A stretch of DNA of 59,746 nt, the filler included, from Jimgerdemannia flammicorona (Eukaryota), in the NCBI GenBank assembly GCA_003990765.1. It is 3 parts of 3 records of this genome, joined end to end, with 100 filler letters (N's around TTAATTAATTAA, not from the genome) between each part and the next. Parts side by side here need not be neighbours in the genome. Positions count along the whole stretch, not along the records: positions 19,954 to 39,805 come from RBNJ01001832.1; 2 more parts are not named here. One strand, written 5' to 3'. The notes below the pieces were generated by a model that worked only from the letters and a program-made list of their open reading frames with translations, searched no databases and was not told the DNA's origin. A program made the translations under genes and the position numbers. Below are positions 2,041-54,184 of this stretch, piece by piece. Numbering within the stretch: position 1 is the first letter of the stretch; the number at the start of each line of letters is the position of its first letter.

Positions 2041-2084
2041 TTCTGCAACTTGGATAGGAATGGAGGCTGGCAGGCCACCTTTCT

Positions 2085-6337: not shown

Positions 6338-6339
6338 AA

Positions 6340-19953: not shown

Positions 19954-20299
19954 AAAAAAAAAAAAAAAAAAAAATGAATCTTGCTATAGTATTTATAGTA
20001 TAGTATATAAAGTGACTATCTATAGGAGTGTGGGCTTTCTCAGCTTTGGCAATTCTCAGCAAGCTAAATAAGCAATGTTACTAAATTAGCAGTCTTATCT
20101 TACCTCTCTTCTTCACCTATACTTTATGTTTGATAGATTCAAATTTTTATTAACTACAGAAATATTTACTATCCAGAAATATTTATCTAGAAAGATATAT
20201 TCAAAAAAAATTACATTCATATATCTAGAAAAAATTACATTCATATATTTAGAAAAAATTGCATTCATATATCCAGAAATATATATCTATTAATATCTG

Positions 20300-22100: not shown

Positions 22101-22174
22101 TTTGTCTTAACAGTTTTCAGTATATGGAGTATAATGAGTGGTGCAGTGTACAGAGTAGTATATAGTATTCAGTA

Positions 22175-25097: not shown

Positions 25098-25185
25098 TAG
25101 TGCTCCGAATGAGTTGATCCGGATAGGATTCAATCCGAATCAATCCGAATCCAATCCGGATTAAATTGACTCGTTAGGAGCACTA
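25098..25185. mobile_element. 88-bp hAT-type MITE
   Basis: 17-bp TIRs TAGTGCTCCGAATGAGT / ACTCGTTAGGAGCACTA (2 mismatches); 8-bp TSD CATATGCA at 25090-25097 and 25186-25193. Removing it restores GDHAYALVAYFP. Confidence 0.9.
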
Positions 25186-25400
25186 CATATGCACTTGTAG
25201 CCTATTTTCCTATTCTGGAGGGCTCAGGACGAGATATGGATAAACTATCATTTACAGAGGCTAAAAGAGTTCTGTATCATCACTGTATGCAAAAGATCTT
25301 AAAGCATTTGGATGATGCAACACAAAGGTAATTATTATCAATATATATATCTATTTTTATATATAAATAATTAATATTTAATTATTAATTACATATATAT

Positions 25401-28677: not shown

Positions 28678-29839
28678 TTTTTTTTTTATTTTATAGACTC
28701 AGAGTCCTGTCGATTTTTATTAGAAGAGAACCTAGACTATATAGACCAAAACCCTCTCCCACCACTCACCAAGCACTGCCCCCCCATTAACCTAGGCTAG
28801 CTATTGTCCAGCAGCTTGACCATACCAGGTGCAGCAGGGCCTATGGTAGCCTGCACCTCATTCTGCACACCATGCTCTTCCTACCACCAGGGGGAATCCA
28901 GCCATATGTCAACAACTGAAAGTGCATGCCCAAGACCCCAATATATGTACAAGGTCATACCTGAGCTGAATAGAATAGTCTCTGCCACCCTAAGAAGAAT
29001 GACAGGCAAAAAAAAACTCTCATCAAAGTACATCATGGTGGATAGGGCCTGGTTCTCCTAGTCAAGGTGAGTAAAGGACTTATACATGAGGTGGGAGGAG
29101 ACCTCCAATACCCCACTACTCAAGCCTGTGGGCCTTGATCACATTGCTATATCAGCTCCTGGTTCTAGTTGAGTGCAGCCAAGATGCCTGAAATAGGTAG
29201 CCTCAGGCCCCCAACCTGCCAAATCGCCAAAAGAAACTGAGAGTGACACCTACTATCTAACTGCTCCACACTAATCAAAAGGCCCCACTGAAGTAACACC
29301 CACCCCAGCCCTAACAACTGCATCCAGTCTGGCACTCTACTGGTTCACCATAATTGCCCTTCCTCCTATCTGTGATGGCCATCTCTCCTTCCATCCCAAC
29401 AACATCTGAAAAACAGTCACCTATGCCAGAACCATGCTCACCAGGAAGCTTACCAAAGCCAGAGGGCCCCACCACAGGCACTGAGGACCTGCAGGTAATC
29501 TACACTGGGCACTTGACACCCAAGGTTGGCCAACTCCCTATATAATCCATGACACACCAAGACAGCACCTTGTTGGTGATGGCAAAGGAAGAAGGCACCA
29601 CACCAAAACAGATGCACTCCAGATGCAGCCAAAGGCACCAGAAACCATGAAAAAGTAGAGAAGATACTGATCAGATACTGATAAAAGGGCAACCCATCAC
29701 CATTGCATCCCTCCCACTGCCCTACAACAAGTACAGCAAACCAACCTGAGGTAGAGAGGGTAATAATTGTGGAAAGTGGACTCAGAAGGTTGCCTACCAA
29801 ACCATTGTGACTGGTAAGGTAGTGGAGAAAGGGGCCTCA
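28678..29839 (-). mobile_element. LINE family 2, 5'-truncated copy in the last Plavaka exon
   Basis: T-tract at left end; TSD AGTAAAATATTTT at 28665-28677 and 29840-29852. Removing it restores YESKIFYLACIQHF. 3' end matches 45775-46014 in reverse complement. Confidence 0.88.
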
Positions 29840-30130
29840 AGTAAAATATTTTATCTTGCTTGTATTCAGCACTTTAAAATGCTCAGTGTATGTGATCCAG
29901 ATACACATATGGTAATGTTAGAATGTACAGAATTATTTGAGGTTGTTCAAATTAGTGATATAGTACGTAATGTTCATTTGATTCCATATTTTGATAGTAC
30001 TTCTACTGCAAGCAATGCTTTAAAGGAAAAAAAAAGATGTTTATAGCTTTGAGAAATATCTTCTTAATTACTATAGTGACAGATATGCTTACTTCAAGTT
30101 CAATTAACTCCATATATTGTATCATAATAT

Positions 30131-30928
30131 TGTAATGCACAATGGCTCTCAGGGAGCAGATAACTAGTTGCAGTTGGTGTTTAGTAGATAATTCTAGCGA
30201 GTGCCAGTGGTAGATTCATCAATAGTTCCACCAGATTGATTTCTAGTTCCCAGTTGAGCAAATTACAGGAAGACCCACTCCCAGTCAGAATGACCCCAGC
30301 AAAGATCCACATACCGAAATTCAACCCGAATTCGGTACCTCAGTAAAATCAAGTCAAAACCGGAGACCGGTTCCCACGCTTTGATCGAATTGTTCGGGCT
30401 CAGTTCGAACCCTATGGATCTTCCCTTTGGAACAGAGCATGCCAAGATTCTTAAAAACATTTTCACCGAGTTTAATTTGATTATAACTCCTTTCCGCGGA
30501 GATATACACTAAAACGTCAAGGAGATACCTCAAAATACACTACCGTGAGAAACTAGCCCATATCTAGAGAACCACCAAGGATCCCCGAGAGCAAACACCT
30601 CCCAAAAATCGCCAGAGACCTCAGCTACAACCTATCCAAAGCTGAAGACCATTCCCCAATCCATTGACAAGTTATTCAAGTTCTCCCAAAGCCTTGATCA
30701 AAACTTCAAGTCCAAATATCTCCACAACCAAGAGATATTTCAAGAAACAGAGGTCAGAATAATTTTCTAGCAATTTGAGGCTATCTCCATGCGAAGTTTC
30801 AAGAGGATAGCTCTATTCCTTAGAAATTTCACGCTGCCCTCTTGAAATCAGTCAGTATAGAGAAATCCGGATTTGGTTTGCCACCAAATCAAGCCGTCCA
30901 AGCCACCTGAAAAGCCACGTTCGTCACA
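30131..30928. mobile_element. Solo LTR of a second family
   Basis: TGTAA...TCACA termini with ATAT at 30127-30130 and 30929-30932; non-coding. Confidence 0.7.
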
Positions 30929-30989
30929 ATATACAGCTCTATGATGATATAAGTATATTTTTAGTGACTTCTGTATGTTATATTGTAAG

Positions 30990-31146
30990 ATACTGGAGAC
31001 GGCTGGAGACTACTGGATAACATTGGAGACACTGGAGATAGAGATGTTGGAGATGGATATGCATGGAGACACTGGAGATGGAGACGTTGGAGATGGATAT
31101 GCCTGGAGACACTGGAGATGGAGACGCTGGAGATGGAGATCCGTGG
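30990..31146. repeat. TGGAGA(C/T) repeat array, probable subterminal repeats and right end of the Plavaka element
   Basis: Array ends in GATCCGTG (reverse complement CACGG, CAC-type terminus); CpG-normal sequence starts right after it. Confidence 0.55.
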
Positions 31147-31602
31147 GAGATTGCAAATAAATTTCGTGATGAATCTCACATGCGGCTGTTCGATTCATTA
31201 TAAAAATCCATAAAAAAAAAACTCAGTGTTTGGCCATAGTAACACAGGGCGTCAAAATCATTCGAATCTATAGAGTGCTGGCAACGTGATGACTGGGATA
31301 AAAAAGAAGAGGAGCGTTTGCATCCAGTCCGAAAGTGCATTGTTGGTCGTCAAGGCCACCAAAGTGAAGTGGGTGGTTGTCGGTTGTCAAGGGTTCGACC
31401 TGCTTCGCGTCAATTTGCTCGAGATTCGTCGGAAATTGAAGGTCAGTTTTGATAGCGTTTTGTTGGAAGTTGATGTCGCTTATTCCAATTTGCTCATCGG
31501 GAAACCATTCGGAAATGACATAGTGTACTTTCGAAAGGAAGGAATCCCCGTATCGTTCGAGAAGTTGGAGCTTTTGTAAGCCACCATAATCTTTAACGCA
31601 TT

Positions 31603-32328
31603 TCAGGTAGCGGTTGACGACATTTTTCGCGAGTCTTTTGCGACGCCGGGAGTTGCTGATCCGAAGCTCCGCGTCGCCGGTGCAAGAATATTCTGCAGAT
31701 CGTGGATCTCCTCCATAACTTCAACTTCGTCTGTGGAGGATAACTGATCGCACCGAGATTTGATGAGAGTATGGTAAGTTTTGTCGTTGAAGCAAGGCCT
31801 GCTATGCTGGGTGCAGCGGAAGCATGGGAAAGATCCAAGACATTGCTTTTTATCGACGTTACACCTAGCACACGCTGTTCCGGGAGAAGCCCGCTTTGGT
31901 GTTTTTATAATGGCGTGGTTCCTGCATACGCGTTCTCTATGCGGTACATGCTGATTTATAAAGGCTGGCGGTGACAGAAATGTGTTGGTGGGGGCAAGAT
32001 TTTGAATAATGGAAAGTGTATTTAGGGTATTCTCGTGGGATTTGAAATGGGAGACCGAGTCGAGGTGGGCTGGTTCGCACGATGCGCCACTTTGTACCCT
32101 CGGCTGGGTGCTGGCGTGGTTGTCCGAATTTAAGTGAACTGGAAGGCCGCCCATGTCCCCGAAGACCTTCAGGCATGTATTGTAGGGACAGAGGATGTAC
32201 TTTGGTATACTGATGTGAACTCCCGAGTTGATGTGAGCTAGGAAGTTTTCCATACTCTCAGTATGGTCGACCCAGCAGCATGCAGGAAAGAGACAGCGTA
32301 GGTAAGAGGTATTTTGATCAAGAGGCAT
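31603..32328 (-). CDS. Putative transcription factor: two C2H2-like fingers + Zn(II)2Cys6 cluster (3' end uncertain)
   Basis: CLFPAC...HINSGVH, CPYNTC...HLNSDNH and ACARCNVDKKQCLGSFPCFRCTQHSRPC; TATA-like TATAAAG upstream on the minus strand; CpG-normal context. Confidence 0.8.
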   Translation of the reverse strand: MPLDQNTSYLRCLFPACCWVDHTESMENFLAHINSGVHISIPKYILCPYNTCLKVFGDMGGLPVHLNSDNHASTQPRVQSGASCEPAHLDSVSHFKSHENTLNTLSIIQNLAPTNTFLSPPAFINQHVPHRERVCRNHAIIKTPKRASPGTACARCNVDKKQCLGSFPCFRCTQHSRPCFNDKTYHTLIKSRCDQLSSTDEVEVMEEIHDLQNILAPATRSFGSATPGVAKDSRKMSSTAT

Positions 32329-33816
32329 GTTGTTGGATTATAGGTTTGAAATCTTAGGACGATTTCTTTATATCTAAATTTTGTTAACTGTCCCCAGCAA
32401 TCGAATGCCAAGCTCACCTGATATCGATATCCGCGTTGTTTTTGTTACGGAATCAGTGGGCGAGTTTAATTTGGCACTTTTTTCCAGTAATGGGTCGGCA
32501 TTTTGAAAACGCAGGCTATCGTGTAATTACATAATGGTCAATGATCAATATATGCACAGTCGTTATATTTGTGAGCTTGTCAGATCTAGGGAAAGCCTGT
32601 GAAACCGAAAGCAGCCCATCGCACCCGGCAATTCCGTCCGGTCAGCTCCGTTCGCCAAATATGTTCACAACAGGGATGTCCTCTTCACCAGCCATATATA
32701 TCGCACAGGAAGGCATTATATCTTCGTTCTACTATGCTATTTCCCCATATCATGCTATCACAGCGCAGGGTGCGGCTCTCAAGGAGCTATATATTTTTAA
32801 AGGTGACCGTTCAATAATACGAAAAGAGTGGGAGATAAAGAGTCGATTCCCTGCCGAGATGGCACTGAAAAAAAAAAAAAAAAAAAAAAAAAAGATTCGG
32901 TTCCCTGGTCACATATGTATGCTAGGGCTGAGCGTGGTACAGCGCTCGTGCCTGCGATTTCACGGAAAAGTAGTCCGAAAGGTGAAAATTGAAAAGGAAG
33001 GATGATCAATAAAGACAGTCATTGTGACCGACAGCGTCTGGCTTGAAACTGCCTTGATGTCAGAACGCCGGACATTATTCCCGCGAGTTCACATTTACGA
33101 GAACTCGCCTTCTGCAGATCCATTTTACGAATGTCAGTCGGATACACCAAACCGCCTTCAACACTGAACTGAGCACACTGTGGAATGCACACCACGCCAG
33201 AACAGAAGCTTTGTTTTGAGCAGTCATGTATCGCGTTGACATATAGCCGAAGGAAGGAAGATGCCGGACAACGACAATGCTCAAATACCCCAGCTCCGGC
33301 AAGTTTCTTCTGTTGTGTGTTCGTAACCACGTCCAGTCCGAAGGCCCGTGGGGCGAAGGCGTTGAAGTGGAGAACCCTAACGAATAGGAGTAAAGAGCGC
33401 GAGAATCCACAAGCATAGCCCGTGGGTTATTCTCACTTCAACATTAGTTTCAATGGGACACGAAGCATCGTGAAAAACGTCTTCTGGTAGTTTCAGATCC
33501 ATCTTCCAGGACTTCCCGACAAAATAAGGGGCTTGAATCATTATGTCGCAGCAAATTGTAAGAGCACGTCTCTCAAAATTGACGCGTCCAAATCCAGGAT
33601 TCGTAGAATGATGATCTAGAACCGCTCTGAAACGGTTCTACGCAGGTTGAAACTGCTAGAAATACATCATCATATACATTGGAAGTCTGTGTAACAAAAT
33701 TTCATAATCTCTCGCCGCCGTCGTCGTCCTATTATGCAGAATCAAAAGGGCAGAGAGGTTTGTAAACCAGATGGCGAGGGCCTTAAGTTTTCATTGTTAT
33801 TGCGATTGCGACATCA

Positions 33817-33864
<48 letters not shown>

Positions 33865-35213
33865 CTGGTGAAAGAGACGTGTTTTGTGCATTTTTCATTT
33901 GTTATGCCCGAAAGGAGAGAAAAATACATTAAATGAGGGATTAGCGGGTGCATGCTGTCATATTCTTCATCAGTACAACCCCAAGCAATTGTGAGAATGT
34001 CTCGCTGATGCTTTGTGCTGGGACAGGTATCGCCACCTGTCGTAGGCGACTGACGTGAAATCCGTATATTCAATCTCGAATTATATATGCATCTTTGCTC
34101 ACTACATTCACGCATCCGCACCATTCCGCTTCCACTCCCCTGTGTCCTGACCTGGGTTAGGTGGCATGCTTCGACAATATCATAGAGATAAATATCGCCC
34201 ATACCCGACATCCCCGCTCTTCTCCCAACGCCCAGCCATCAACAGACATAGCAACTGTGGATGGATCAATTCGGAGTCACAGAACCCAAGAACATTGTAA
34301 GCGTTGACACCTCTGGGAAGTCGTTGAACAGAGGCGATGTCGTTCGCCACTCGATGGACTTGTTAAGGGGTTCCTTAACAGGTGCGATGTATAAGTCGCG
34401 ATGTCGCTGTTGGATAGATTGCTTGTTGCGCTTTCATAGAATCTGGAAGATAAAACATATCAGGCCTCCACTGCTGTTTGTCCATGCCGGTTCCTATATA
34501 TTGTGCCGCGGGTAAATTCACCACGCGCTTGTGGGATTAAACTTCGCCACGACATTATCGAACCAGCGTTTTCACTCGAAAATCGGTGAGAATGGGGGCA
34601 TGAAGCGTGTAACGGATTGAAACGGAGAACAGCACATTGCTTTCGACCGAAATATTTGACTATACCAGGATAATGCCACCTTGAGGAGATAACCGAGTAT
34701 AGCGTGATGCGACTTGAGGCATGATCTCGTTGGCGACACAAAACACGTGAATTATATTTTGTTTGATTTTTTTTTTTTTTTTTTTTTGATGTACATAACC
34801 CATGGATACAGGAGGGTAGTAGGTTCCTTTCACTATTCGAACTGTGGGCGCGGGTAAAAACTGGCATAACCCACCTTCACTGACAACCACGCCTGCTCCA
34901 TTGGGCCAACATTTTCTGATATCCTGCGGGTGATATTCTAAGTGTGATTTAATTAAGTAAATTCAGCTTTGACCGCTCGCTTGAGTAGGTCTTAAACATT
35001 TCTCGCATCCATTCGAATCGCGTTATATTTCGGCAACATGTGGTCGAATATTTTACTCATTCCGACCAAAGTTTTCAAATGCGAAGTGCGAAGCCATGGG
35101 AAGTCGTTTCTTACCCTTAAATGATTTCGAGCAATGTATATATATATATATCATTATATACTTACAGAAATCGCCGGTGAATTTATATAAATTTAATCCC
35201 ACCGTTTTCTCAC

Positions 35214-35422
35214 CTTAAAGAACGCATCAATGACTTCTGAAGAATACCTGCGACCGGTGCCAGATTGATTGTCTGCTCTTCCCACGTTGTCTTTTGTAAT
35301 TCAATTACAATCGACTGCAATAACCAATCCCGTATAATTACCACGTCACTTGTCCCCAAATAATAGTCGACTTCCGTAACCGCGACAGCCATACTCTATT
35401 TGACTTCGAGAATTGCCTGCTC
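35214..35422 (-). pseudogene. Isolated exon-like fragment, unknown protein
   Basis: CTGAC..TACAG acceptor and AG/GTGAG donor around EQAILEVK*SMAVAVTEVDYYLG...; one in-frame stop. Confidence 0.25.
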
Positions 35423-38247
35423 CTGTATTTGCCTGGGTCAGGGTTCCCACCAATCCAATGGCTTCTACGACCTGGTCATATAAGTTTTTACCTCAGAGTA
35501 ATGAGGTCCGCAACCCAACTCTTGATCGCTAGACCGAACGTGGGTATCGTAATATGGCGTTACATCGTCTTTGTGTAAATTGGTTGCATTTTGTGAATTT
35601 CGCCTGCATCATGTAAACAAAACCCGTGGAAAAATACACATATTTCGCTATCAATGCTTTGCCGTTAGAAGTGAATCGTTTCTTAAGTTCAGTAATGTGA
35701 AATGAGAAGATTACGTACAATGTCAGACAACGACAAAATGAGTTCGAACGCAACTTTACAAATTGAAAAATAAAGATATTGGCCACGTAAATTCGGTCGG
35801 CTCTGAAAAATCTCAATGCAAACATAGAGTGCACGTTTTATTAAAGTTGGAAATCCAAATCGGTGATCACCTTCAGACAATCAATACTGCGGGCAGTACT
35901 TGACGACCAAGAAGCACGTGCTGTGCTACGAGTTCGAGCAGAGCTCCTACCATATCATTTTGTCATGGCGACGAAAATGGCTACAAGTTTACGACAACTA
36001 ATTACAATGTCTCGCCAACTTGAACTCGTTCCCAATACACATGCATAACGAAATCAAACCAATCCCCTATCTCCAGCTTCAGAATGGCAATGTCATCTCT
36101 CGCGAACTGCTCATTTTCCAGAACCCAATGGTCAGCAAGAACCCTCATGAAAAAACGTGTGCGAGGAGCGGGCGAGAGTATTGCGGGCGCTTGTGGAGAA
36201 AAAGGCGACATGTGCCGGGGAAGGTGGTGCGATAACGTGATTCTGGTGGAGGAGTATCCGACATGCAGGCGGTCGGTAAGGGCGATCGGTGGGATACATG
36301 TAGGTGGTCGATGGGGGACATGTAGGCAGTCGTGGTACATACGGGACATGGTGATGCCGCTAGACAGAGTTGTACGCTTCTGGGGGGGGGGAAGGTACAT
36401 CAAAGTGGAGCGTTCGGCCGTTGGAGAGCAGGTGAGGACAGAGGGTTTGTCACGACATCGTGCGGCCCGCATTGAAGTCCATCAATCAGGGCGCTGGGTA
36501 CCAGTACCAGAATCTCGTGACGCCCGAGCTGATGAGCCCGATCTTGTATAAGACAAGGCCGTACCTTTTCTTCTCAGCGATTACTGCAAAATCCGGCACA
36601 TCACGACAAAATCGAGCTATCGGGGATTGGCGCCGTCGAAGTGACGGTGAATACGCATGGCGCAGGAGGTGCGCTAACCAGGGTACACCCTTCTTAGCCT
36701 GTTCGATCCAGGTAACTCGCCCTGGGAGGAGCCTGTCGACGGGGGGACGCCCACGTTCGTGCACACATAGTGTCTACGGACCAGTTGGTCATGTTCGCCG
36801 GGTACGGAGTCATGGCGGAGTTAGATTCTGGGTGTTACTGTCGCGCAATCTCGAGCTGGGTGGATGCGCATGATGGGGGATCGGGAGGAGTTAGAGATAC
36901 TGCTGTTTTACGGGGCGCAGGAGGGCAGGTGCAAGGGCGACGAGGAGAGGAGGGTGAGCGTGTTCAAGAGGAGAAAATTTGGAGGACGGTCAGGGGAGGT
37001 CGCGGAGGTGGCATGTGTATGTTGGTATTTGTGGCGTGGTCGGTGGTTTGGTGATTCTTTACTTTATGTGGAGAAGGGAGGAGGACATTATATTCAAATG
37101 GTAGTGAGATATAATTGTATGTTATTATGACTTTGTAAGCTTTAACTTGTAATTGTAATATTTTTAATTTTTCGTTGCTTGCAAGATTGCCACAGCATCA
37201 CCGTGACATTCAAACCCTTATCTGTCCGGCTTTCCTATAACTCAGACCAATCCTTTCACCGACTCTATTCTACATTTACGTTTTCCTATTTTTTGATTTA
37301 TTTTTCCTCCAACGATCCATGTAGAACCCCTAAACCATGCGCCATTGTCCGACACATAATCCGGTCGGGAATCTTGGCGGCCTGGTAGTTCCCATTGCCA
37401 TGCATACAACGCGCCGTGCGACACGATCCGCCGAATGATTTTTTGTCTGACCCTCGAGACCCTTAGTATTAGTCAGAGAAAATTATATAAATAGTGTATG
37501 TTTGCCAACGACAATAGAGCTCAGGTTTGAACTATTCGAATTCCGGCGCGTACAAGCAAGAAGTGCGCTATCAGAATCATCCGCGTCATTTTTTCAAGTT
37601 TGACGCGTCTCATTTAAGGTTGTGGAACGATGGCGTTGAACGACCACACGGGAGGTCCATCGCTCTACGCACTCTCAATGGGACGTAGCCGATAGCATTA
37701 GTCAGAGAGGCGGAAAGTGGCTGTATAATAGGATAGGGTGCAGAAATAATAAAGCGCAGCTTTGAGGATTTGGACTATCGGTAAACACGTTCATTCATGC
37801 ATGAACATACAATCAGAGGAATCCGCGTATAATAGGTCTCAACAGGTTGCTTTACTAAGCAAAGGCGTTCCTGTAGATCCGACAGGACAAATTTCTGGTG
37901 GAACGTCACTAGAAACAAGCCACCGATTGTTTTATAATGGCGATTCTTCACATGCAATTCTCTTGGAAAAGTTTCACACAGATGACAATGATGATACAGC
38001 AGTGGTGGATATTGGTGTTGAAAATGAGAAGGTAGTGGAAGTCAATATTTAAGATATTGTTTATAAATATATATATATATTAATCATTAAGGCCAAAATT
38101 GTGACTGGTCACAATATCAATTATAAAATAGTGAAAAAAACTACTTTTATTAAAATATTATATGTAATAATAGAAAAAAACTCTTCATTAGATTAAACTT
38201 GATTAAGTACATTAAAAAGGAGTAGAGTATAAGTACTGTGCAATACA

Positions 38248-38328
38248 TAAAAAAAAAAAAAGAAAAAGAAAAAAAAGAAAAAGAAAAAAAAGAAAAAGAA
38301 AAAAAAGAAAAAGAAAAAGAAAAAAAAA
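38248..38328. repeat. A-rich (AAAAAG)n tract
   Basis: Directly visible; may be a decayed poly(A) tail. Confidence 0.85.
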
Positions 38329-38967
38329 TATAATTCGCGTGTTTTGTGCCGCCACCTCAAGTCTACCTTTGCGATCCCGTCGAAACCAACTGATAATTTT
38401 GTATGGGCAGGCCAACATAATCAATCATTTGTGCATATTGTGCTTGTATGCCTTACTCAACAAGTCCAGACCCTGTAATCTGACAATCTGACCACATTCA
38501 AGATTTAGCCGTGTCCACCCTTATCGTCATATAGAATTATGTCGTCACTGGCAAGCCACAAAAAAAAAAAAATTCTATTGCCACGCCGTGTCCATATTTC
38601 CACCCAAACTTCTTTTTTCAACCCCCCCAATCATGAGTACTTAACACTACCACTCACTGTAGCCGCCTGTTCGACTTGAGGTAGAGACGGTGAAAGCAAG
38701 TACCCGGGGAACGCCAGTAGCCTAAAAAGTGAAAGCAATTACCTGTTGCGGGAAGTAAGCGTGTAAACTTTCTTTCAAGAAACTCATGTACAGGGCGCCC
38801 ACCACCTTCAGGTTCATCTTGTCGGTGGTCCTCTTACAAACCCCTCAAACCCCTATCAGTGCCCGTGATAAATATTAACACTCTCTTTCAAGGTCCGCAT
38901 GCAGGCGGCCCCTACAAGGGCCCTTCAAAGATAAGTAGTCTTTCATAGTTCTCTCAATGTTCTCAAC

Positions 38968-39040
38968 ACTATCGTTCATTTGGAAAAACTCCTACTAACC
39001 GCCAACTGACGAGCCCCTTAAAAAGGTGCGGAAGATAAGT
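38968..39040 (+). ncRNA. Degenerate type III hammerhead ribozyme
   Basis: TTGG...GCCAA, CTGACGA (39006-39012), GCCCCTT/AAGGTGC stem II, mutated GGAAG in place of GAAAC, residual stem III ACTATC/GATAAGT. Confidence 0.55.
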
Positions 39041-39119
39041 ATATACGCCTTTATTTTCTGTTTGTTTTCAACACTTTATTGAAAATCTTTTACTCACTAT
39101 TTTTTGACCGGTTCCTTAT

Positions 39120-39179
39120 ACCGGTCTTGGTTGCTTCTTATGCCAACTGATGAGCCCCTTGAGCAAGGGCGAAACCGGT
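39120..39179 (+). ncRNA. Type III hammerhead ribozyme, apparently intact
   Basis: Stem III ACCGGU/ACCGGU; GUC site (cut after 39126); stem I UUGGU/GCCAA; CUGAUGA at 39147-39153; stem II GCCC/GGGC; GAAA at 39171-39174; loop1 UGCUU complementary to loop2 GAGCA. Confidence 0.88.
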
Positions 39180-39805
39180 CTATGTCATAGTTACATTAGT
39201 TATATCTTATACATAGTTTTATAATATAGTCATACCAGTTTGGAATAAAATATTATATTAAAAACAACACCGAAATATGATAAAGTGTGAAAAGAGGTGG
39301 CGTCCTGCACATATCACGCGACCTGTCCATGCGGGTTCAACATGGTCGCTTTTGGAGAGCCGAATCCGAGCCCACAGTTCACCCGTGCACTCACACACGC
39401 ATACACGCGTCTCAACCATGGACTCGAGATACCCTATGACCGCAATGACCGGTAGGAGACGCTGCAATCGTCAGTCTGGACTACGCAAGAATACGATTCT
39501 GGTGGAGGGGTATGACAGGTACCGATATACAGGTATGTGTGGGATACGGTAGTACTAGACCAGGGTGGGAGGAAGCTCTATACTTGTGAGAGCGTTGTTC
39601 CCCATTCGGCTGCCAGAGAGGCAGGTAGAGACGGAGGGGTTTACCAGATGAGCGAAGAGATTGGGGTTTGGGGATTGCCGGGACATTCCAGCACACCACA
39701 CTCACTCCTGCGTGAACTTTGCAAAAACAGCGAATCCACGAAGCCTGCTGCTCTTGATCTGTTGGATGATCATGGTGTTGCAATCCATCGATCTTATATG
39801 GGGGG

Positions 39806-39905
39806 NNNNNNNNNNNNNNNNNNNNNNNNNNNNNNNNNNNNNNNNNNNNTTAATTAATTAANNNNNNNNNNNNNNNNNNNNNNNNNNNNNNNNNNNNNNN
39901 NNNNN
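39806..39905. other. Artificial contig-joining spacer
   Basis: 100-nt N block containing TTAATTAATTAA. Confidence 0.95.
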
Positions 39906-42900
39906 TTTTTATAGTCACTTAGACTCCACCTTTATTACCAGTCTACGAATAAATATACATCAATCCGACCCACTATCCAATCCCCACAGGGGGGCCCCTC
40001 CCTACTTCCTCATGACTGAAAATCACCCTTTCACCAACTACCCCCACTCTCTCCCCACTTTGTCCACAGATTTTCTCCACCAAGCGGCACCTCCGACCAC
40101 CCCGCATCCCCCAACCCAGCCACCAGCCTGTTAAGGTATCTTCCATAAGCCTATGCCATCGCAGCAGCCAGTCCCCCAAGCTCTGCCTCCTCCCATCCTC
40201 AAAAACAAATAGCCAATGACTGGCCAGCCCCATCCAAATAGCCAAAGCCCAACCTAAAGTAAGCCACTCCTTCCCTATCCCCCCTACCAATCTAACCCTC
40301 AAGTCCTCCCATTGCCCCTGTACTTCATCACTCCTACCCCATACCCTTAAGCAATCTCCAATTGTCTGCCAAAAATCCCCCAACACCTCACACTCTCCTA
40401 GCCAATGTTCTGGCGTTTGTACATAACCCCCCTCCTGCCCTACATTATGGTACTCCTTACAGTCGAAGCAACCCCCTACAACCAGATGCCCTGAGCGAAA
40501 ATTGAGCATAACATTCCTCCGCAGTATGCACCACCAGACCACCCAGTACTTTGGTGGCAGCCATGCTCTCACTGCAGCACTCCAGGTCCAAACACTATGC
40601 CAGTCTCACTCTTCGCCAATTCCAACTCCTTGCCAACCACTAGGCCACAGATCCTGGCCTGGTCCCCTTTGGCATTCCATTCCATCACCAATGTCGAACT
40701 CAACTAAAGGAGCACCACCCAGCAGTATACAGTCTCATCTCCACATCGCTGGGTCCCAATCCTCCTCACCTTCATTCCTCTGCCAATGAATACCAATGCA
40801 GTGCACTCCTTCTGCAATTCTCCACCAAAATCCTTTATATTGTAGTTGGGCAGTGTTCTGAAGCCCAACCAAGGAGAGGAGATCACCAGTTGAGCCCCTT
40901 GGCGATACCCACCTCTCCCATAACTTCTGTAACAGAGGAACCCATCCACCTCCTCTCAACTCTACTGCCCTCTTCAGCCATCATGCTCTCAAGCAGTGTA
41001 ACCATTTTGAGAAGTCAACCAGCCCAAGACTGCCTCTTGCCACTGGTAGGGACAAGGTCTCCCAACTAATTTGACTCTGCCTGCTAGCCCAAATCCATCC
41101 CTTCGCCAACTTCATCAATCTCTTCACTACCTAGGCTGGGAAGTCCAGATGATACGCCAGGTACCACAACTTTGGCAGCCAGTAGACATTCAAAATCGAG
41201 ACCTGCCCTGCCAGAGAAAAATGTCTTCCCCCCCAACTCCGCAGAGCCTCCTCCCAGATTCCAATCCTCTGCTCCCACCAAAGCTTGGGCAGAACTGACC
41301 CATAGACTGACAAGTAGATACCTAAGTACCACACCGCTTCACCAGTGGGGACAATTGTTCCTATAACCTCCCCTCCCACCAGGCCGTTACCAAGTACTAT
41401 CATCTCACACTTATGTCAATTCAGCTTAGCTCCAGAATGCTCCTCATACCACTCCACAGTCCTCTTGAGCTCCTCAACATCAGCAATCAAACCCAAGCCC
41501 ACCACTATGTTGTCAGCAAAGGCCCCAACCTTCCATCCTATGCCAAAGACAGAGAGCCCCACTATCCTTCGCCTAATTCGGTCCATAAGTGGTTCCAGGG
41601 AAAGAGCATACAAAATGGGGGACAATGGATCCCCCTGGGGCACTCCCCTTCCCAAGGGGAATGCTACTCCTCTATGTCCATTACACATGAGTGCAGCCCT
41701 ACTTCCTTCCAGTAGGCTGACCATTGTTGACTGGAATTGATGCAGTACCCCCATTCTATCCAAAACTTTCTCTAGCCAGACTCTCCGCACCCAGTCATAT
41801 GCCTTCTCCTGGTCCAAGAAAACTAGACACCCATCCAGTTCACATGCTCTCGCCCCTTTGATGATGCCATGCACCCAGGCAGTGCCATCCCTGATGAGCC
41901 AACCACCCACAAATCCCCTCTGCTCAACACCCACAACTTGCTGGGCCACCTTCTGTAGTCTTGCCCCACCACCTTAGTTATCAACTTTCTGTCCATATCT
42001 AGCAGCATTATCGGCTGCCAGTTCTTCCAATCCTCCCGCCTTCTGTTGTTTTTGTAGAGCAGCGTCACCAGCCCAAGGTCCTGCTCTCCCACCCACCTTC
42101 CTGTCTATAGAATAAGGTCACACAATGCTGTCATCTCTCCCATCACCCCTGGGACTTCAACCATTCACTTCCAAAAGTTCCAGGGCAGACCATTCTCCCC
42201 AGGTGCCATACCAGACATTGTCGCAGCAAGAACCTGGTGGATCTCATCCTCCTGTACAGGTATCACCAGGTCCCCTAGCCCTTCGACTTGTGGTGGGTGC
42301 CAATCCTCCAATATTCATTCAATTGTAGCAGCATCTGCCCCACCCTCCTCCTCACTCCACAATCCACTCCATCTCTCCTTCAGTGATCCAAGAATATTCT
42401 ATACACCATGCACCAGTACACCATCAGAGTCCAATACCCCTTCCCACTGTTGCTGGACCCGCCTCGCCCTAAGGGCCCTTGTAAAGCTTGGAAAGCCTCT
42501 CTCCTTCCTCCAGATCCTGCCAACGAAGCCGTGCTGCCAAGCTCTGTACCCTTGCCTCTTCCTCCTCCTGCAGCACCTGTTGAAGTTCCCCAACCTCCAT
42601 TTTCGCCCTCATTAATCTCCAATCTTCTTCTCCCTCCAACATCATCAGCCTTGCCCACTCCTCCAGAAGCCTCATCAATCTAGCAGAGGCCCAGCACACT
42701 CTTTGTTTTCACTGCTTCCCTGCCTCCTTGCTAGTCTCCTTCCAGTAAATCCTGACCATTTCTTTCATCCTCATCCACCAAGTCCCAACTGCAGCCCCTT
42801 CCTGCCTCCAGTTCTCCACCCTCAGCTGAATGTCTTTAGTCCACTCATCCCACCAGGTCTTGTCATCTAACAAAGAGGAATTGAGGTGCCAATGTCCAGG

Positions 42901-45770
42901 CCCATCCCCACTTCCCCCAAAGCACCCCTGTCCCAAAAGCCCCCAGTGATCCGACCATGGACACCATTCCACCTCCAATGATTTCCAAACATCTAGTCCC
43001 CAGCAACAGGCTGTCAAAATCCAGTCAATTCTAGTCCCCAGACCCCCTGCCCAATGTGTATAGACCCTCCTACTCTCCCAGCACTCTCTTCCAGCATCCA
43101 ATAGTGCACTTAGCCTTTCTACTTCCTCCCATGCCACCAGCCCTCCACTCCTGCTCTCAGCACCTCATCCTCCATCTGATCTATCCAGCAGTATATTCCT
43201 AACCATATTGAAATCTCCCCCTAGCACATCCACCCCAGCCTCCACAAGTAATCCACTCTCCTGTAAGCCTTTCACCCAATTGACCCTCTCACCCCATACC
43301 ACAGGGCAGTAGCAGGAGCCAACCATAACTGGCTCCCAGCCTGCCCGAATCCACTCTCCCCAGACCAGCCTTTCCCCCCAGCACTGCACATTCTGTATCT
43401 CCCCTCTGCCTTTCCTAACCAAAATCCCAATCTTGCCCTTCCAAATCGCTGCACCTCCTCATTCCTTTGTCCATTCTAACCTATCAGAGTCATCTTCGCA
43501 CCGGACATCCTGCAAGAGGAAGAGATCAGCTTCCAATCCCTTCATCCAAGTAAAAATGTTCCTACATCAAGAAGTGCCCTGTAACCCATTCACATTCAAA
43601 GAGAAAATGTTGGTTGTACTGTTCATATTGATGATATATATGATGTCATCAATCTGCCTCTACTGCTCCATGCTCATCTCCTCCCGCGCCCTGTCCAAAT
43701 TATGTTCCACAGCCACCTCCTCCTCTTCAGCCCTCTGAGCCTCCAATCCAGCCAGCAGTTCATTCATCTCACCATCAGCCTTCTCCTCAAACTCCTCTCG
43801 GTATTCGATACATGCTTCCTGCCAGAGCTGTAGTCCATGTCGCTTATTCCAGCAGTATTCAGCCCTTTCTCCAGCAACAACTGCCATCTCCTCCTCCCTC
43901 TCCTTATCCACCTCATATTCTTCCTCCTCCAGGTATACCGCAAGGATTTCCACCTTCAATGCCTTCATTATGCCATCCCCCTGCAGTATTCCTGCCCAAT
44001 GCTCATCACTCATCACTCGCAAGTCCACTTCCCCCAACTCTTCCACTGCCAGGTTATTCATCATCCAGTACATCCAAAGCAAGTTCCCCACCTCTTTCCC
44101 CCCTGGAGTCACTGGCCTCCCTCCATCCAATATTGTGGTGTCAGCTCCAGCACTTGCAGACTCATCCTATACTTCCGGGACATCCACCAGTTCCTTCTCA
44201 CCATCCGCCGCCACCTGTCCCCCATATGCCACCTCTGGAACTCCGAATTGCACCCTCTGGGCCCCTCGCATTGGCACATCTTCCACCACCCTATTCCAGA
44301 AAGCCGGACCATACCTGATGAGAGGGGTAGGGGTAGGGGAGCCCACCCAGTCCTCCTCCCACACCTCTAGTGTACCATCTGCATATGGGTCCTTCCCAGC
44401 CTTCTTCTTGTCCTCCCCCACCTCCTGCTTGTTCTTCCCCTCCCCCTCGCTGGCCCAGACACTTGCTCCAGCTCCCCCTGTGCCCTTCACCTTGCTCGCC
44501 TCCCCCAGTGGTCTGCTATCCAGCTTGGCCAGCAACTCCTTCTGTCTCTTACGCCCCTGAGCCTTTTCCCACTGCTCCTTGGTCACTCGAATCCGCTTTC
44601 CATCCACCACTTCCAAGTGCGTCGCCTCTTCAAAAGCCTCCCAAGCCTTTGCTCGCCTCTCCACAGCACCCCCCAGCTCTTCAAGTGCTTCCAGTAAATC
44701 CTCCTCCTCCTCTTCACTCCCCTTCACCCTTGTCACCTTACACAGGATTGCTTTCCAGACCATTGCTGAAGGTCAATCTCTTGCCTTCCCAGTGGCTTCC
44801 TTCCCAGCCAGCCGAATCCTCACATCCATGTCACCAGTCCTGAGCGAGGTTCCTTCTCAGACCCTGAACCCGATATCCACCACCTCGCCATATTCCGCCA
44901 TGAAATCCTCAACTCTCTTCCTTGTCTCCATTGCTGTCACCATCGGCACTCCTTTTACCAGCAGTTGGACCACCCTGGGGTCCCACTTCAAGTACTGCGC
45001 CATTGGAACACACACCTCCCTAACCACCAATCCAACCTTCAGCGCCTCCTCCAGCAGTGCCGCCTCCTCAAAACCCACCTCCACTCCTTCCAGTCCCTTC
45101 AAAAACTTCACAGATGCTGCACCTGCCACCTGCTTAGTGATGAGCCCCAGCACCATTTTTGCCATCACCGCCAGGCCCCAGAAGCATAGCGTGACCGCAA
45201 ATGCTGAAATCGATTTCTTGAGTAACGGGGCTACTGCCAGACCCGTTACACCATCTGCCAAGTCCCCTTGTCTTCTAAGCCTCAGCTGCTCAGCCTCACT
45301 ATCAGCCATCACATCTGGATTTTTTTCCAGATTGACAGTCCCAATACCATCAGCAGTCACACCCCCCCCAGCCACTCTCCCGCAGCTCCACCGCCCCCCC
45401 TTCCAAGGGCCGCACCCCCTGGCACCATTGCCTTCTCGGTCTCCTTGCCCTTCTTCAGCCAGCCCTCCAGCCCTGATGCCTGCTGTCTCTCCTTCACCAT
45501 CTCTACAAAGCTTGCCCTCCCAGATCCTGATCCTCTACCACCTCCTCCACCCCTTCCACATCCACCCGCCAGTAGGCCCCTCATACCTCCCCCCAGGCCT
45601 GGACCCCTCCCCACCTGCTGCCAGTCGAAAGCACTTGGGCCGCCCTACCCAGTATGCACCTCAGGTTGCCTGTCGGTTGCCATGTTGTTAGTCTCTTTTT
45701 GCTGAAAATGATATTGAAAGTGCCTTCCAAAGGTTGTGTAACCTGAATGGTACTGGAAAAAGAGGTGCTT
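39906..45770 (-). mobile_element. LINE family 1 copy E: full length, inactivated
   Basis: T-tract at the gap; ORF1 ATG 45683, ORF2 ATG 43626; GGDFN, SDH, QGDPLSP, FADN, CKEY...EHWLGEC; 5' motif CCAGTACCATTCAGG shared with copies C and F. Confidence 0.95.
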
Positions 45771-45774
45771 GGCT

Positions 45775-46014
45775 GTGGGCTGGCTGGGTTTCCCCTGGTG
45801 GTAGGGAGAACATAGTGTGCAGAATGAGGTGCAGGCTACTTTGCCCTACTGTGCCTGGCATAGTTGAGCTGCTGGATAATAGCTAGCCTAGGTTAATGGG
45901 GGAGCAGTGCTTGATGGGTGGTGGGGGAGGGTTTTGGCCTATATAGTCTAGGTTCCCTTCCAATAAAAATCTGTGAGACATAGAGTCCATTAAACAAAAA
46001 AAAAAAAAAAAAAA
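45775..46014 (+). mobile_element. LINE family 2, 3' end with AATAAA and poly(A)
   Basis: Reverse-complement match to about 28690-28910; interrupts the Gypsy integrase HHCC region. Confidence 0.88.
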
Positions 46015-48155
46015 GTTCCAAGGTGACCAGCTAGTGGGAAGTCATGGTATTCATGAAGAATCTTATGCTGTAGTTCAGGGTTAGTAGGAATATATACTTT
46101 GTCTTGATAGTATATGAGGTTATCCTTGATGGTGTACTTTTCCTTGAATTCCTTGGTATTCCTTTGTAGAATCAGAGAGTCTTGTTCATATGCCTTCTTG
46201 ATCTGATTGAGGAATTTGGGTGCCATGGTGACTTGTAAAATTGCAGCAAGGTCAGGTCTTCTTGAAAGTGCATCTGGTATAACTAGAGTTTTGCCAGGCT
46301 TGTAGATGATGTTTGGGGTGAAGGTCTGAAGTAGTTGACTCCACTTGGCCTGTTGGCAAGAGAGGGTTGGTTGAGTGTTGATGTACTGAAGGGATCTGTG
46401 ATCAGTGATCACATCAAACTCAACTTCTTCTAGGTAGTGTCACCAGATCTTGAGGGCATGTATGATTGCCAGGAGTTCCTTTTCATGAGTAGCCAGCTTT
46501 TATTCAGCTGGGGACAATTTTCTTGACTTAAAGGCAATAGGTCAGTGTCCTTGACCATCATCTTGAGAAATGACTGCACCAATGGCAAAGTTAGATGCAT
46601 CTATAGTGACCATGAACTTCAAGTTTGGGTCTATGTTTCTAAGGACAGGTGCATGGGTCAGGCAGTTCTTGAGTTCTTGAAAAGCTTGTTGACAAAAAGC
46701 ATTCCAGATGTAGGGCAGAGTTGGGTTTCTTTTGCAGGAGATTTGTCAAAGATTCTGCAATGGCAGAGAAGTTCTTGACAAATCGATGGTAGTATCCAGC
46801 CAGACCAAGAAAGGACCTGAGTTTGGTGAGGTTTGCTGGTACAGGCCACTGTTCAATGGCTTGTATTTTCCTTGGGTCTACTTGAATTCCTTTGGCTGAT
46901 ACAATGTGTCCAAGGTATTTGACTTGATCCTTGAAAAATTCACATTTCTTAAGCTTTGCATAGAGTTTGTTCTTGTGGAGGATCTTGAGGACTTGTTCAA
47001 TGTACTTGAGGTGTTCTTCTTCAGTGCTACTGAAGATCAAGATGTCGTCAATGTATACAAGTACAAAGATATAGAGCTGATCCTTGAAGACATTTTGCAT
47101 GAGATCTTGAAAAGTTGCTGGCATATTAGTGAGACCAAAGGCCATGACTAGAAATTCATAGAGTCCGAAGGGTATTATGAAGGCAGTCTTGGATATGTCT
47201 TCTGGCTTAATTCAAATTTGGTGATACTCAGAGGTGAGACCAATCTTGATGAAGTACTTTGCATTTTTGAGAGCATCAAAGATTTGATCTATAAGTAGTA
47301 GTGGATAATGGTTCTTGACTGTGATCTTGTTGAGTACTTGGTAGTCTATGCACATTCACAGAGTATCATTCTTTTTCTTGACAAATAGAACTGGAGAGCC
47401 AAAGGGTGACTTGCTTGGCTGAATGGCTCCTTGCTTGATGAGCTATTGAGTTCCTTCTTAACTGCTTCAATTTCAAGTAGAGACATACAGTACATTTTCT
47501 TTTTAGGTATAGCTGTATCAGGTACCAACTTGATTTTGTGGTCATGATCTCTTGAAGGTGGTAGACCAGGTAGTTTGTCCAGGAAGACATCCTTGTACTT
47601 ATTCAGTAGTAACTTGATGCTTTCACTAATTGATAGCTTCTTGTCTTCTTTCTTTGGTCAGATCAGTGCCACAAAGGCACAGGTAGCTTTCTTGAGGGCC
47701 TTCTTGAACTGGATTGCTAACAGGGTAGCAATTAGGGTTTTTGTCTGAGTCTTGTCTGGCCTGATGGCAATGTTGGTTCCATCCTGAATCAGGGTGACTT
47801 CATTCTTGGTTCAATCAATCTGAGAGTTGTATCATGTAAGCCTGGGTTTACCTAGGATCAGGTCATGGTCTCCTAGTGGTGCTACCTCAAAATCTAAATG
47901 TTCCCAGTACTTCTGGATCTTGAGAGAGAGTTTAGTGGCAATTGGGTCAATTGATAAGATGGTGCCATCTGTAGTGACAACTCCACCATTCTTGCTGGCT
48001 AGTTTGGTGAGAATCTTGAGCTTATCAATGAGGTTCTTGTTGATGAAGTTCCCAACAGCTCCACTGTCTATGAGAACATCTAGCTCTTGTCCCTTGACTA
48101 GGCCCTTGAAAATGAGCATTGAATTGGCTTGGTTCTCAGCTATGCTTGTAACTTT

Positions 48156-48566
48156 ATCAGTGTTACCAAAGTCTTTCTGATCTCACTTAGTTGAAGACAG
48201 CTTGGTGACCTCTTTGATGACTGGTAGGGTGACTCACTCCAGAATGAGCTGTACAATTCTGTCACCTTTATTGACAGTATATGGTTGGTTCTTGTGGTTG
48301 ACTAGCAGGACTTGCATTTCACCTCAGAAGTCAGGGTCAATGACTCCAGCACCAACATCCAATGAGTGCTTAAAACTGAGGCCAGATCTTGGTGCAATTC
48401 TTGCATAATGTTCCTTGGGAATTTCGACTAAAAGGCCAGTTGGAATGAGCCTTCTTTTATGTGCAGGAATAGTGACTTGTTGTACTGCTTGAAGGTCTAA
48501 ACCAATGGCTCCTTCTGACTGTACTTGAGGGATCTGGGCCTTGGAGTTGACTCATATGAAATTGAG
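48156..48566 (-). pseudogene. Trimeric-type dUTPase domain within the Gypsy polyprotein
   Basis: All five motifs: AIGLDL, RIAPRSGL, GVIDPDF*GE, GDRIVQLI, TK*DQKDFGNT. In frame with NC and protease; stops are TGA at Arg positions. Confidence 0.93.
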
Positions 48567-49629
48567 TACAACTTCATATTCAACTGGTTGATCTTGGGTG
48601 TCTTTGGACAGAACTAAAATCCTCTTTGGTTCAGCAGTTTTCTTGGGACATTTGGTTGCAATATGACCAGACTGATAGCAAAAGAAGCAAGCTCCAACCT
48701 TCTTAAGATACTTCTTTTTCTTGAATATGAGCTTGCCTTTCTTGCTCTTATCAATTGTATCTAGGTCCATGAGAGCAGGTCCAACAGTTCTGACTTTGGG
48801 TTCCTCCCTTTTGTGGTTGTTATTGAAAGGTGGTCTCTTTTGTTCAAAGCAGTGACCATAAGTGATGATATCAAATCTATCAGCAATCTTCATTGCTGTA
48901 TCTAGGTTCTTGAGTTCTTCTAGTTCAACATTGATCTTTCAGACCTCAGATATACTTGTTGACCTTCTCGTCTTCAGTGATATGTGGTAATTCAAAGTAG
49001 GATTGATAGGAATTATGTATTGTATATTTACACAGACTTGAGTTGTTTGACATTTGGTAGATGGTCTTGTGTAGTCTTAGTGCTATTGACTGGTTTGAAT
49101 TGATCTTGAATGGTATCAGAGAATTTATTCCAGGTCCTGATCTGGCCAGCAAATCTGGTATTCTGGACATGGTTTTGCTGCCAGATTGCAGCATTTCCTT
49201 GGAGGAGTGTGGTGGTGAATTGGACTAGTGTTGCTTCTTCCAAATTGCTCAGTTCTCCATATTGCTCCAATTGGAAAAGCCAGGCATCAGTAGACAGTCC
49301 TCCTCTTTGACCATCAAAAGTATTGGGCTTCTGAGGCTTGATAGTGACTGCTGTCAGATGTATTAATATCAGTAGAGGTGCAGAGGTATGAGCAGAGGCC
49401 TTGCTTTCCTTTCTTTCTATACATTCTTGAAATTTGGCAATCTGAGCTAATACAGTCTGCAAAAGACTCTCAATGACTCCATTTGACTGAGTAGGGTTTT
49501 GCTGTTCCTCTTCTTATTGATTGTATGAGACATTGTCTGGACCATAGGTACTATATGAAAGATTCCATCCATTGTCCTCTATAGTGTTGTAACTGATATC
49601 TTGAGAGGTGTCTTAATAAGGCTAGGTAT

Positions 49630-49647
49630 AACCACCCACTGCTACCA
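49630..49647 (-). promoter_or_regulatory. Primer-binding site, initiator tRNA-Met-like
   Basis: TGGTAGCAGTGGGTGGTT 2 nt after the LTR end; TGGTAGC is characteristic of iMet PBS. Confidence 0.75.
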
Positions 49648-50053
49648 AGTATAACAGTTCTAGTTTCTAAATGAGGAAGCAACTAGTTCTGGTAATTCTA
49701 AGTAACTTGAAGAGATACTTAAAGATTCAAGTATTCTTGAAGGATTTCTGGGAGAAAATATTCTGAGCCTTTATTCATAAGAACAAAGGGGATATTTATA
49801 CAAGATCTGAAAGAAGGATCCAGAAGGATCTGAGAAATCAAAGGAAAATGCCAAGAGGAAAGTTCTCAGCAAAGATGACAAATGATGATAAATAAAGTTC
49901 TACAAGTTTCCAGGACATTCAGTGACTAGCTAAATAAGTACTAGAGGATGCTCAGTACCAAGAAAGGATTTCTAAGCATTCAGAAAGTACTGGAAGGTTG
50001 TAGAATATTGAAGAAAGACAAAGAAAAGAAATAAACTATGCTAAAATGTTATA

Positions 50054-54181: not shown

Positions 54182-54184
54182 AGA

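Follow-up and report, generated by a model that had tools for sequence, protein, structure and literature searches.

Hammerhead motif at the end of the middle piece

The stretch of DNA analysed here (the window; 59,746 bases) consists of three ~19.85-kb pieces joined by two linkers (19854-19953 and 39806-39905), each consisting of TTAATTAATTAA between two runs of 44 N; stretches on either side of a linker are therefore not genomic neighbours. A hammerhead ribozyme motif was identified at 39120-39179 on the plus strand, in the middle piece (19954-39805) and ~630 nt before its end; nothing past 39805 is therefore a neighbour of the motif. Its component features are listed in Table 1. Sequence reading of 38900-39400 and the list of base pairs both agreed with an earlier description of the locus from sequence alone (the sequence-only reading), which had reported that all core nucleotides are present and that all three helices pair. 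Helix III comprises 6 bp, the innermost being the conserved A15.1-U16.1 pair (39174 with 39125), whilst helix I has four Watson-Crick pairs and one G.U, and helix II has 4 bp. The features that define a hammerhead structurally are all found here, namely the CUGAUGA and GAA core, A15.1-U16.1, a non-G cleavage site and three helices. In the Rfam alignment, loops close helices I and II and helix III is open, which is the type III topology. An AATAAA hexamer, also seen previously, is present at 39244-39249, 65 nt 3' of the motif.

Table 1. Features of the hammerhead motif and of related sequences in the middle piece of the window
Feature	Position	Strand	Basis or remark
Decayed direct copy of the whole ribozyme	38970-39034	+	Repeat search, local alignment, nhmmer
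Competing hairpin (predicted), 39106-39112 with 39120-39126, 7 bp	39106-39126	+	Minimum-free-energy fold of 39095-39200
Helix III 5' strand, ACCGGT (palindrome)	39120-39125	+	Pairs with 39174-39179; Rfam alignment and pair list
Predicted cleavage-site C (position 17)	39126	+	Rfam Hammerhead_3 alignment; predicted cut 39126/39127
Helix I hairpin, stem 39127-39131 with 39142-39146, loop 1 at 39132-39141	39127-39146	+	Rfam alignment and pair list
Loop 1 segment able to pair with loop 2	39131-39136	+	Six contiguous pairs with 39161-39166
Conserved core CTGATGA (positions 3-9)	39147-39153	+	Sequence reading, Rfam, core pattern
Helix II hairpin, stem 39154-39157 with 39167-39170, loop 2 at 39158-39166	39154-39170	+	Rfam alignment and pair list
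Loop 2 segment able to pair with loop 1	39161-39166	+	Pairing test of both loops
Conserved core GAA (positions 12-14)	39171-39173	+	Sequence reading, Rfam
Helix III 3' strand, second ACCGGT	39174-39179	+	Pair list

Significance of the match

A covariance-model search, proposed as a check in the sequence-only reading, gave a divided outcome. The Rfam Hammerhead_3 model (RF00008) was matched over its full length (positions 1-54 of 54) at 39119-39180 on the plus strand, with E-values of 1.6e-7 for the 601 bases searched and 1.6e-5 for the whole window, but the score of 41.1 bits falls below the curated gathering cut-off of 48.5 bits. This shortfall is accompanied by 7 inserted nt in loop 1 and by an outermost position that is unpaired; every core position of 39120-39179 agrees with the model consensus. 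A default Rfam scan of the window listed no matches, the motif being absent from it because its score lies under the gathering score. With E-value reporting, the same search returned 39119-39180 as the sole hammerhead, and the sole ribozyme, in 59,746 bases. A simple core pattern likewise matched once in the window, against 0.04 matches expected. The score under the gathering cut-off could be taken to indicate a chance resemblance to a hammerhead, as could a folding z-score of only -0.66 for the isolated 60-mer. Set against this are the window-wide E-value and the presence of a near-identical motif in an unrelated contig (L156) and in many contigs of two sequencing runs (X1 and X2), both described below. 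The probability of a chance resemblance is negligible, and the hammerhead motif at 39120-39179 is real.

The loop segments given in Table 1 could form five Watson-Crick pairs and one G.U, one more than the 5 bp of loop 1-loop 2 complementarity reported in the sequence-only reading. This complementarity holds as sequence, but when both loops were shuffled 50,000 times at least 5 bp were reached in 36% of cases and at least 6 bp in 11%, so that taken alone it is not above chance and provides no evidence of a contact. Two observations lean towards a loop contact: the variants listed for other copies of the motif spare 39131-39135 but affect 39136-39142, and the sixth pair is altered on both sides in L156, from U.G to G-C. 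One leans against it, as the same strand in L156 pairs with an upstream AGCAA and thereby lengthens helix I. A kissing loop at 39120-39179 is possible on these sequence comparisons.

Genomic setting

Open frames were scanned across the middle piece (66 of 66 frames of at least 75 aa) and the outer pieces (107 of 159 frames of at least 80 aa, the other 52 being left out without a fixed length rule). None of the 66 frames in 19954-39805 encoded a reverse transcriptase, in keeping with the earlier remark that no such gene is visible nearby. Two marginal domain matches were obtained in the middle piece: a Zn(2)-Cys(6) frame (Zn_clus) at 31606-32337, ~7 kb from the motif (21.1 bits, cut-off 21), and a Plavaka transposase fragment at 27226-27492, ~12 kb from the motif (27.6 bits, cut-off 26.3). 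Plavaka elements are typical of agaricomycetes. These two marginal matches are what points to a fungal, probably agaricomycete, host. The only further match in these frames was a sub-cut-off Peptidase_C1_2 hit ~1 kb upstream of the motif. Long terminal repeats were not found near the motif in the middle piece, where the sole direct repeat was a 33-nt stretch of ribozyme core, and the tRNA scan gave no matches. A 12-nt primer-binding-site motif had eight matches in the window against 5.9 expected, none of them within 6 kb of the ribozyme. No element boundaries were seen.

The observed/expected CpG ratio was 0.81 for 38300-39805 and 1.0 for 30000-37200, compared with 0.02-0.29 in the transposon blocks of the window; the earlier description of the locus as CpG-normal was thus close to the mark. 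The outer pieces hold LINE-like remains, with endonuclease and reverse transcriptase, and Ty3/gypsy remains (107 of 159 frames). Diverged LINE-like copies were seen at 2000-10500, 12974-18534, 40000-46000 and 54182-59746, all with an extreme strand bias in which G exceeds C on the coding strand (GC skew ~0.45-0.55) and with an observed/expected CpG ratio of 0.04-0.29; two of these copies were 85.5% alike, and 640 of the 804 substitutions between them were transitions. The Ty3/gypsy remains at 46000-52200 lie on both strands and include gag, protease, reverse transcriptase, RNase H and integrase, with observed/expected CpG of 0.02. In the middle piece, long A-rich tracts were noted at 38249-38328, 33816-33864 and 34731-34786, including an array with a 15-nt period (AAAAGAAAAAAAAGA, 5.3 copies), and these may be the tails of retroposed sequences.

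A decayed copy upstream of the motif

Upstream of the motif and in direct orientation lies a decayed copy of the whole ribozyme. Identity is clearest over the 33-nt core stretch (26 of 33 nt, spacing 141 nt), the alignment reaches the 5' strand as well, and nhmmer assigned the copy a window-wide E-value of 0.054. Its core reads CTGACGA, a tolerable change, but GGAA stands where GAAA is expected and helix III has been lost; for these last two reasons the copy should be catalytically dead. Rfam did not recognize it. The window therefore carries two ribozyme-like copies, 141-149 nt apart and directly oriented, one of them dead by this sequence assessment. Outside the two copies the spacers gave no alignment by local alignment or nhmmer, so a tandem array is not demonstrated at the window locus, and Tandem Repeats Finder reported none there.

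Other candidate repeats near the motif were discarded. A third copy at ~38890-38940 upstream and another, ACCAGTTTGG, at 39233-39242 downstream were dropped as not significant alone; the latter, 113 nt downstream of the cleavage-site motif, resembles a decayed ACCGGTC-TTGG junction. Interpretation of 39046-39106 as a ribozyme core mutated by transitions was rejected by eye, the purine/pyrimidine pattern being mismatched.

Folding in isolation and in native context

With tertiary contacts uncounted, the isolated 60-mer has a hammerhead fold of -15.9 kcal/mol against a minimum of -17.1 kcal/mol. In its native context (39095-39200) the gap is wider, with the active fold at -16.4 kcal/mol and the minimum at -28.3 kcal/mol. 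The competing hairpin in this minimum has a pair probability of 0.78-0.79, against ~0 for helix III, and a third ACCGGT at 39107-39112 forms part of it. As predicted, the hairpin would sequester the cleavage site along with the 5' strand of helix III, and it would be transcribed ahead of the ribozyme. Within the helix I stem, the pair next to the junction (39127-39146) had a probability of 0.25, and the remaining four pairs had 0.77-0.85. The predicted folds in native context thus disfavour the active form. Other copies of the motif differ in their upstream flank, and so this handicap need not hold for them.

Two further observations concern the immediate flanks. The downstream flank at 39181-39200 is nearly complementary to the catalytic core strand (~39146-39155) and is paired with it in the minimum-free-energy fold, which could be either chance or a built-in off-switch. 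The upstream hairpin at 39106-39126 resembles the helix I hairpin (39125-39147), with most differences judged by eye to be transitions, among them two stem pairs in which both partners have changed (CCGG/CCGG versus TTGG/CCAA). This likeness, as judged by eye, suggests a partial duplication of the 5' part of the ribozyme.

Copies of the ribozyme block in public sequencing runs

Five public runs, none of them on record as RNA, contain parts of 38500-39760, and four of these (X1 to X4), all made up of assembled contigs, were compared with 37800-39805 at 85% likeness. X1 and X2 are filed under one organism code, either the organism of the window or a close one, and whether they derive from DNA or RNA is only guessed. 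Across the 2,006 bases, 78 contigs were placed from X1 and 105 from X2, as opposed to eight and one from the soil-metagenome runs X3 and X4, respectively. A single 151-nt soil-metagenome contig covers 39144-39180 with three differences at a depth of 2, which is too thin for use.

Several lines of evidence indicated that the ribozyme is multi-copy in the X1/X2 organism. A T>A variant at 39141 was found in 12 (X1) and 11 (X2) distinct contigs, and a 1-nt deletion at 39137 in seven and four, respectively. At least ten contigs begin to match the ribozyme block at 39121-39123 after unlike sequence, and in at least 14 the match stops at 39177-39178; the flanks around the block have a consensus agreement of only 0.53-0.57, and there are 71 further loose ends beyond those listed. 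Listed differences within 39121-39177 are all confined to 39136-39144, that is to loop 1 and to a single C>T in helix I which leaves a G.U pair; the core, helix II and the helix III CCGG are free of listed variants. Both runs also contain contigs that agree perfectly with the window over 96-129 nt on each side of the motif, indicating that the window locus, or a near-identical one, is present in X1 and X2. Summed word depth over the motif reached 7,030 (X1) and 7,658 (X2) compared with 0-150 and 0-40 in the three bins on either side, but this figure is not a copy number, and the multi-copy claim therefore rests on contig counts. The ribozyme block at 39121-39177/8 thus occurs in at least a dozen sequence contexts in the X1/X2 organism, and the part shared between them is the ribozyme itself. 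The earlier description of the locus as non-repeat DNA has to be abandoned, given the decayed copy upstream and the presence of the block in at least 12 (X1) and at least 11 (X2) distinct contigs. Diverged versions of 38637-38887 and 39424-39805 were also seen in X1 and X2, with joints that skip or replace 198-340 nt, from which it follows that the surroundings of the ribozyme are themselves repeated in this organism.

These data bear on whether the window copy is a silent relic, namely a dead insertion, untranscribed or trapped in an alternative fold, that has kept its sequence because it is young. Such a relic would suit the predicted folds, in which the upstream hairpin and downstream flank out-compete the active form, as well as the decay of the partner copy and the lack of any recognized gene or promoter context in 66 of 66 frames of the piece, bar the distant Zn-cluster and Plavaka matches and the sub-cut-off Peptidase_C1_2 match. 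It fits less well with the fact that the motif still has all three of its CpGs while transposons of the same genome are strongly CpG-depleted (observed/expected 0.02-0.29), or with the other copies, which hold the core and helices unchanged while their flanks differ and so argue for constraint on the module. On balance we regard a silent relic as rather unlikely; it would in any case be compatible with membership of a family and say something about the window copy only.

A second possibility is that the host forms RNA ends with stand-alone hammerheads, for example by cutting read-through or non-coding transcripts. That the conserved unit in the other copies is the ribozyme alone (39121-39177/8), between unlike flanks, is in line with this, as is the AATAAA 65 nt downstream. 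Numerous copies with unrelated flanks and a tandem-repeat relative nevertheless fit a mobile family better, and there is no known conserved gene neighbourhood. The sequence-only reading had offered a domesticated self-cleaving RNA as one of three options; with many copies and no gene context it found no support here, and we consider it improbable.

A tandem-repeat relative and the type I to type III permutation

A family-specific pattern, composed of the helix I strand, core, helix II and GAAACC, had one match in the metagenome collection, the 1,294-nt contig L156, and none in viral contigs or prokaryote genomes. L156 is identical to the window at 39 of 40 nt over 39142-39181 and at 16 of 16 nt over 39120-39135; the rest of the window gave no further match to it. 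The two matching stretches overlap by 8 nt in L156, meaning that a single ACCGGT is present there compared with two in the window. Accordingly, its order is GAA, one ACCGGT and the cleavage C, followed by TTGGTTGCT as after the window cleavage site. The L156 hammerhead is of type I and of the dimer type, with a helix III that is merely a palindrome, and its best Rfam model is the type I model HH9 (23.6 bits, E 0.004). Two copies of the ribozyme lie exactly 530 nt from each other, in a perfect tandem of two 530-nt units, and the monomer unit folds with helix I closing it. In each 530-nt unit a weak match to Plant_SRP, corresponding to the Alu-domain end of signal-recognition-particle RNA, was noted on the minus strand (L156:468-644 and 998-1174; 22.1 bits, E 0.0007), and the unit might be a 7SL-derived, SINE-like body carrying a hammerhead.

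Relative to L156, the unit body between the helix I strands has shrunk to a 10-nt loop in the window and a second ACCGGT plus C stands ahead of it. With ACCGGT on both sides of the window motif, helix III forms in cis, and as L156 carries the same ribozyme in type I arrangement, the type III form of the window is a permutation. By sequence, 39120-39179 is the same ribozyme as that of L156 in rearranged form, which places its kin among tandem-repeat and Penelope-type hammerheads and not among viroids. The earlier type III assignment is therefore retained for topology, whilst the link drawn with viroids and plant retrozymes is not, the sequence kin being the type I tandem-repeat hammerhead of L156; the label alone implies no kinship with viroids. 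According to PMC4209133, type I hammerheads with a helix III of 1-2 bp and a palindromic cap act as dimers in tandem repeats and Penelope-like elements, the canonical animal-type architecture shows no monomer cleavage and forms an extended helix III between two tandem copies, and the change from type I to type III by way of a palindromic helix III has so far existed only as a laboratory construct.

A generic core pattern was uninformative in viral contigs, where it retrieved more than 123 phage loci; a type III version of the pattern retrieved 32. All are unrelated phage hammerheads. These 32 phage-contig loci (L124-L155) fit the pattern GGTC...core...GAAACC and share the core and a GCCC/GGGC helix II with the window motif, but differ from it in helix I, the loops and helix III. 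One contig carries three such loci within ~3 kb (L126, L127). Beyond the common core, these loci are unrelated to the fungal family.

The type III topology of the window is also what an integrated DNA copy of a viroid-like or ambivirus-like fungal circular RNA might display, since infectious circular RNAs mostly carry type III hammerheads (PMC13725137). Such an RNA, raised in the sequence-only reading as an integrated circular RNA, is not supported by the search of the window, which revealed no second ribozyme, of opposite polarity or otherwise, on either strand, and by the failure of the family-specific pattern to match any viral contig. Compared with 200 shuffles, 17 of which fold equally well, the 149-nt stretch separating the two copies shows no unusual structure (z -1.58), and the closest relative, L156, is a DNA tandem repeat in type I arrangement. 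An origin from such an RNA is thus very improbable.

Comparison with known hammerhead elements

Genome-encoded hammerheads tied to retrozymes are of type III in plants and of type I, often dimeric, in animals. Non-LTR retrozymes are described as tandem repeats with type I hammerheads (PMC7229834; bioRxiv 10.64898/2026.07.22.740005). With these and with metazoan satellite tandem repeats bearing type I hammerheads (PMC7229834, PMC4209133), the family shares the core, a 4-bp helix II and a helix III made of a palindrome that needs a second copy, and L156 is similarly an exact tandem of 530-nt units with one such ribozyme each. The window differs from them in carrying the palindrome twice in cis and in having a closed helix I, yielding a monomeric ribozyme of type III topology, and in having only two ribozyme-like copies, one dead, with unalignable spacers in what is apparently a fungal host.

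Among fungi, one relevant comparison is with endonuclease-deficient Penelope-like elements, such as those of Serpula lacrymans, whose hammerheads are genome-encoded, retroelement-linked in basidiomycetes and active as monomers (PMC4209133); self-cleavage of the window motif is predicted. That paper (Cervera and de la Pena) assigns the fungal Penelope-like element hammerheads to type I, with a helix III that is large and closed and without recognisable loop-loop contacts, and reports one from Serpula lacrymans as active. The window motif is unlike them in its open helix III, closed helix I and pairable loops. A Penelope-like element would also be expected to bring a telomerase-like reverse transcriptase between hammerhead-bearing repeats, and none of the 66 frames of 19954-39805 matches a reverse transcriptase, although the piece ends ~630 nt downstream and an element lying farther away would be invisible. 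Plant-type LTR retrozymes, characterised by a ribozyme in each long terminal repeat, a primer-binding site and a polypurine tract, are similar in their type III topology and in having two ribozyme copies in direct orientation, whereas the window has no LTRs and no match to the 12-nt primer-binding-site motif near the ribozyme, a spacing of ~149 nt compared with several hundred, and a sequence lineage of type I repeats. In sum, the window motif does not qualify as a plant LTR retrozyme, as a Penelope-like element (within its piece) or as an integrated viroid-like RNA.

The fungal record in the literature covered consists only of Penelope-element variants, repeats in Yarrowia and unexamined Rfam matches. 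Hammerheads in interspersed repeats of Yarrowia are reported by Perreault et al. (PMC3088659). For an assembly of the agaricomycete Pleurotus ostreatus, PMC5040776 lists five 55-nt Hammerhead_3 matches without analysis, three of them within ~10 kb of one scaffold; these resemble the window motif in being type III hammerhead matches. The words fungi, fungal and fungus are absent from a 2020 review of ribozyme-bearing RNA circles (PMC7761336). Our literature search retrieved no description of a retrozyme-like hammerhead repeat family in fungal genomes, a weak negative as most subscription journals were outside its coverage. The motif belongs to a known kind, and stands out by the way in which a palindromic helix III turns type I into type III and by its uncommon host group, the fungi.

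Proposed mechanism and implications

Taken together, 39120-39179 is probably one copy of a dispersed, multi-copy hammerhead family of the retrozyme/Penelope-element kind in a fungus, probably an agaricomycete, a reading that we hold with moderate confidence. Direct support comes from the sequence with its helices, from the range of contexts and from the relative in tandem repeat. Of the three options raised in the sequence-only reading, the retrozyme-like or Penelope-like one is thereby favoured, on account of the same ribozyme occurring both in the 2 x 530-nt tandem of L156 and, as a block, in many contexts.

We infer catalysis, transcription, mobility and a source of reverse transcriptase for this family as follows. 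By descent the ribozyme would be a canonical type I hammerhead whose helix III is the palindrome ACCGGT only and which requires dimerisation for cutting. In the window version, a 10-nt loop closes helix I and a second ACCGGT stands upstream of the cleavage site, allowing the palindromes to pair in cis and giving a monomeric, type III-looking ribozyme. Once a plus-strand transcript had folded, the 2'-OH of C39126 would attack the next phosphate and the RNA would be cut between C39126 and T39127, leaving an upstream RNA with a 2',3'-cyclic phosphate and a 5'-OH RNA from 39127 that keeps almost the whole ribozyme. Where two live copies flank a unit, unit-length RNA could be freed, circularised by a tRNA-type ligase and copied by a resident reverse transcriptase, a cycle of release, ligation and reverse transcription that corresponds to the model proposed for retrozymes (PMC7229834). 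At the window locus this cycle would be broken by the death of the upstream partner copy. Given the dead partner and the competing hairpin, the window copy itself is most likely a decaying insertion that would at best cut read-through transcripts.

If this reading is true, a fungal family with an animal-type core, comprising a dimer-type tandem and a cis-closed monomer, would extend retrozyme-like elements to a third kingdom, and would offer a case from nature in which a palindromic helix III allows type I to be permuted into type III. A more far-reaching version, which we think distinctly unlikely, is that fungi have their own retrozyme-like elements in which the palindromic helix III of a dimer-dependent type I hammerhead was duplicated, yielding a cis-active module of ~57 nt that stands alone and is itself the copied and conserved unit. 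Were the ~57-nt module the unit that is copied, it would be either the smallest retrozyme yet or a host-recruited cassette for forming RNA ends, and the window and L156 would represent a natural series of hammerhead topology interconversion.
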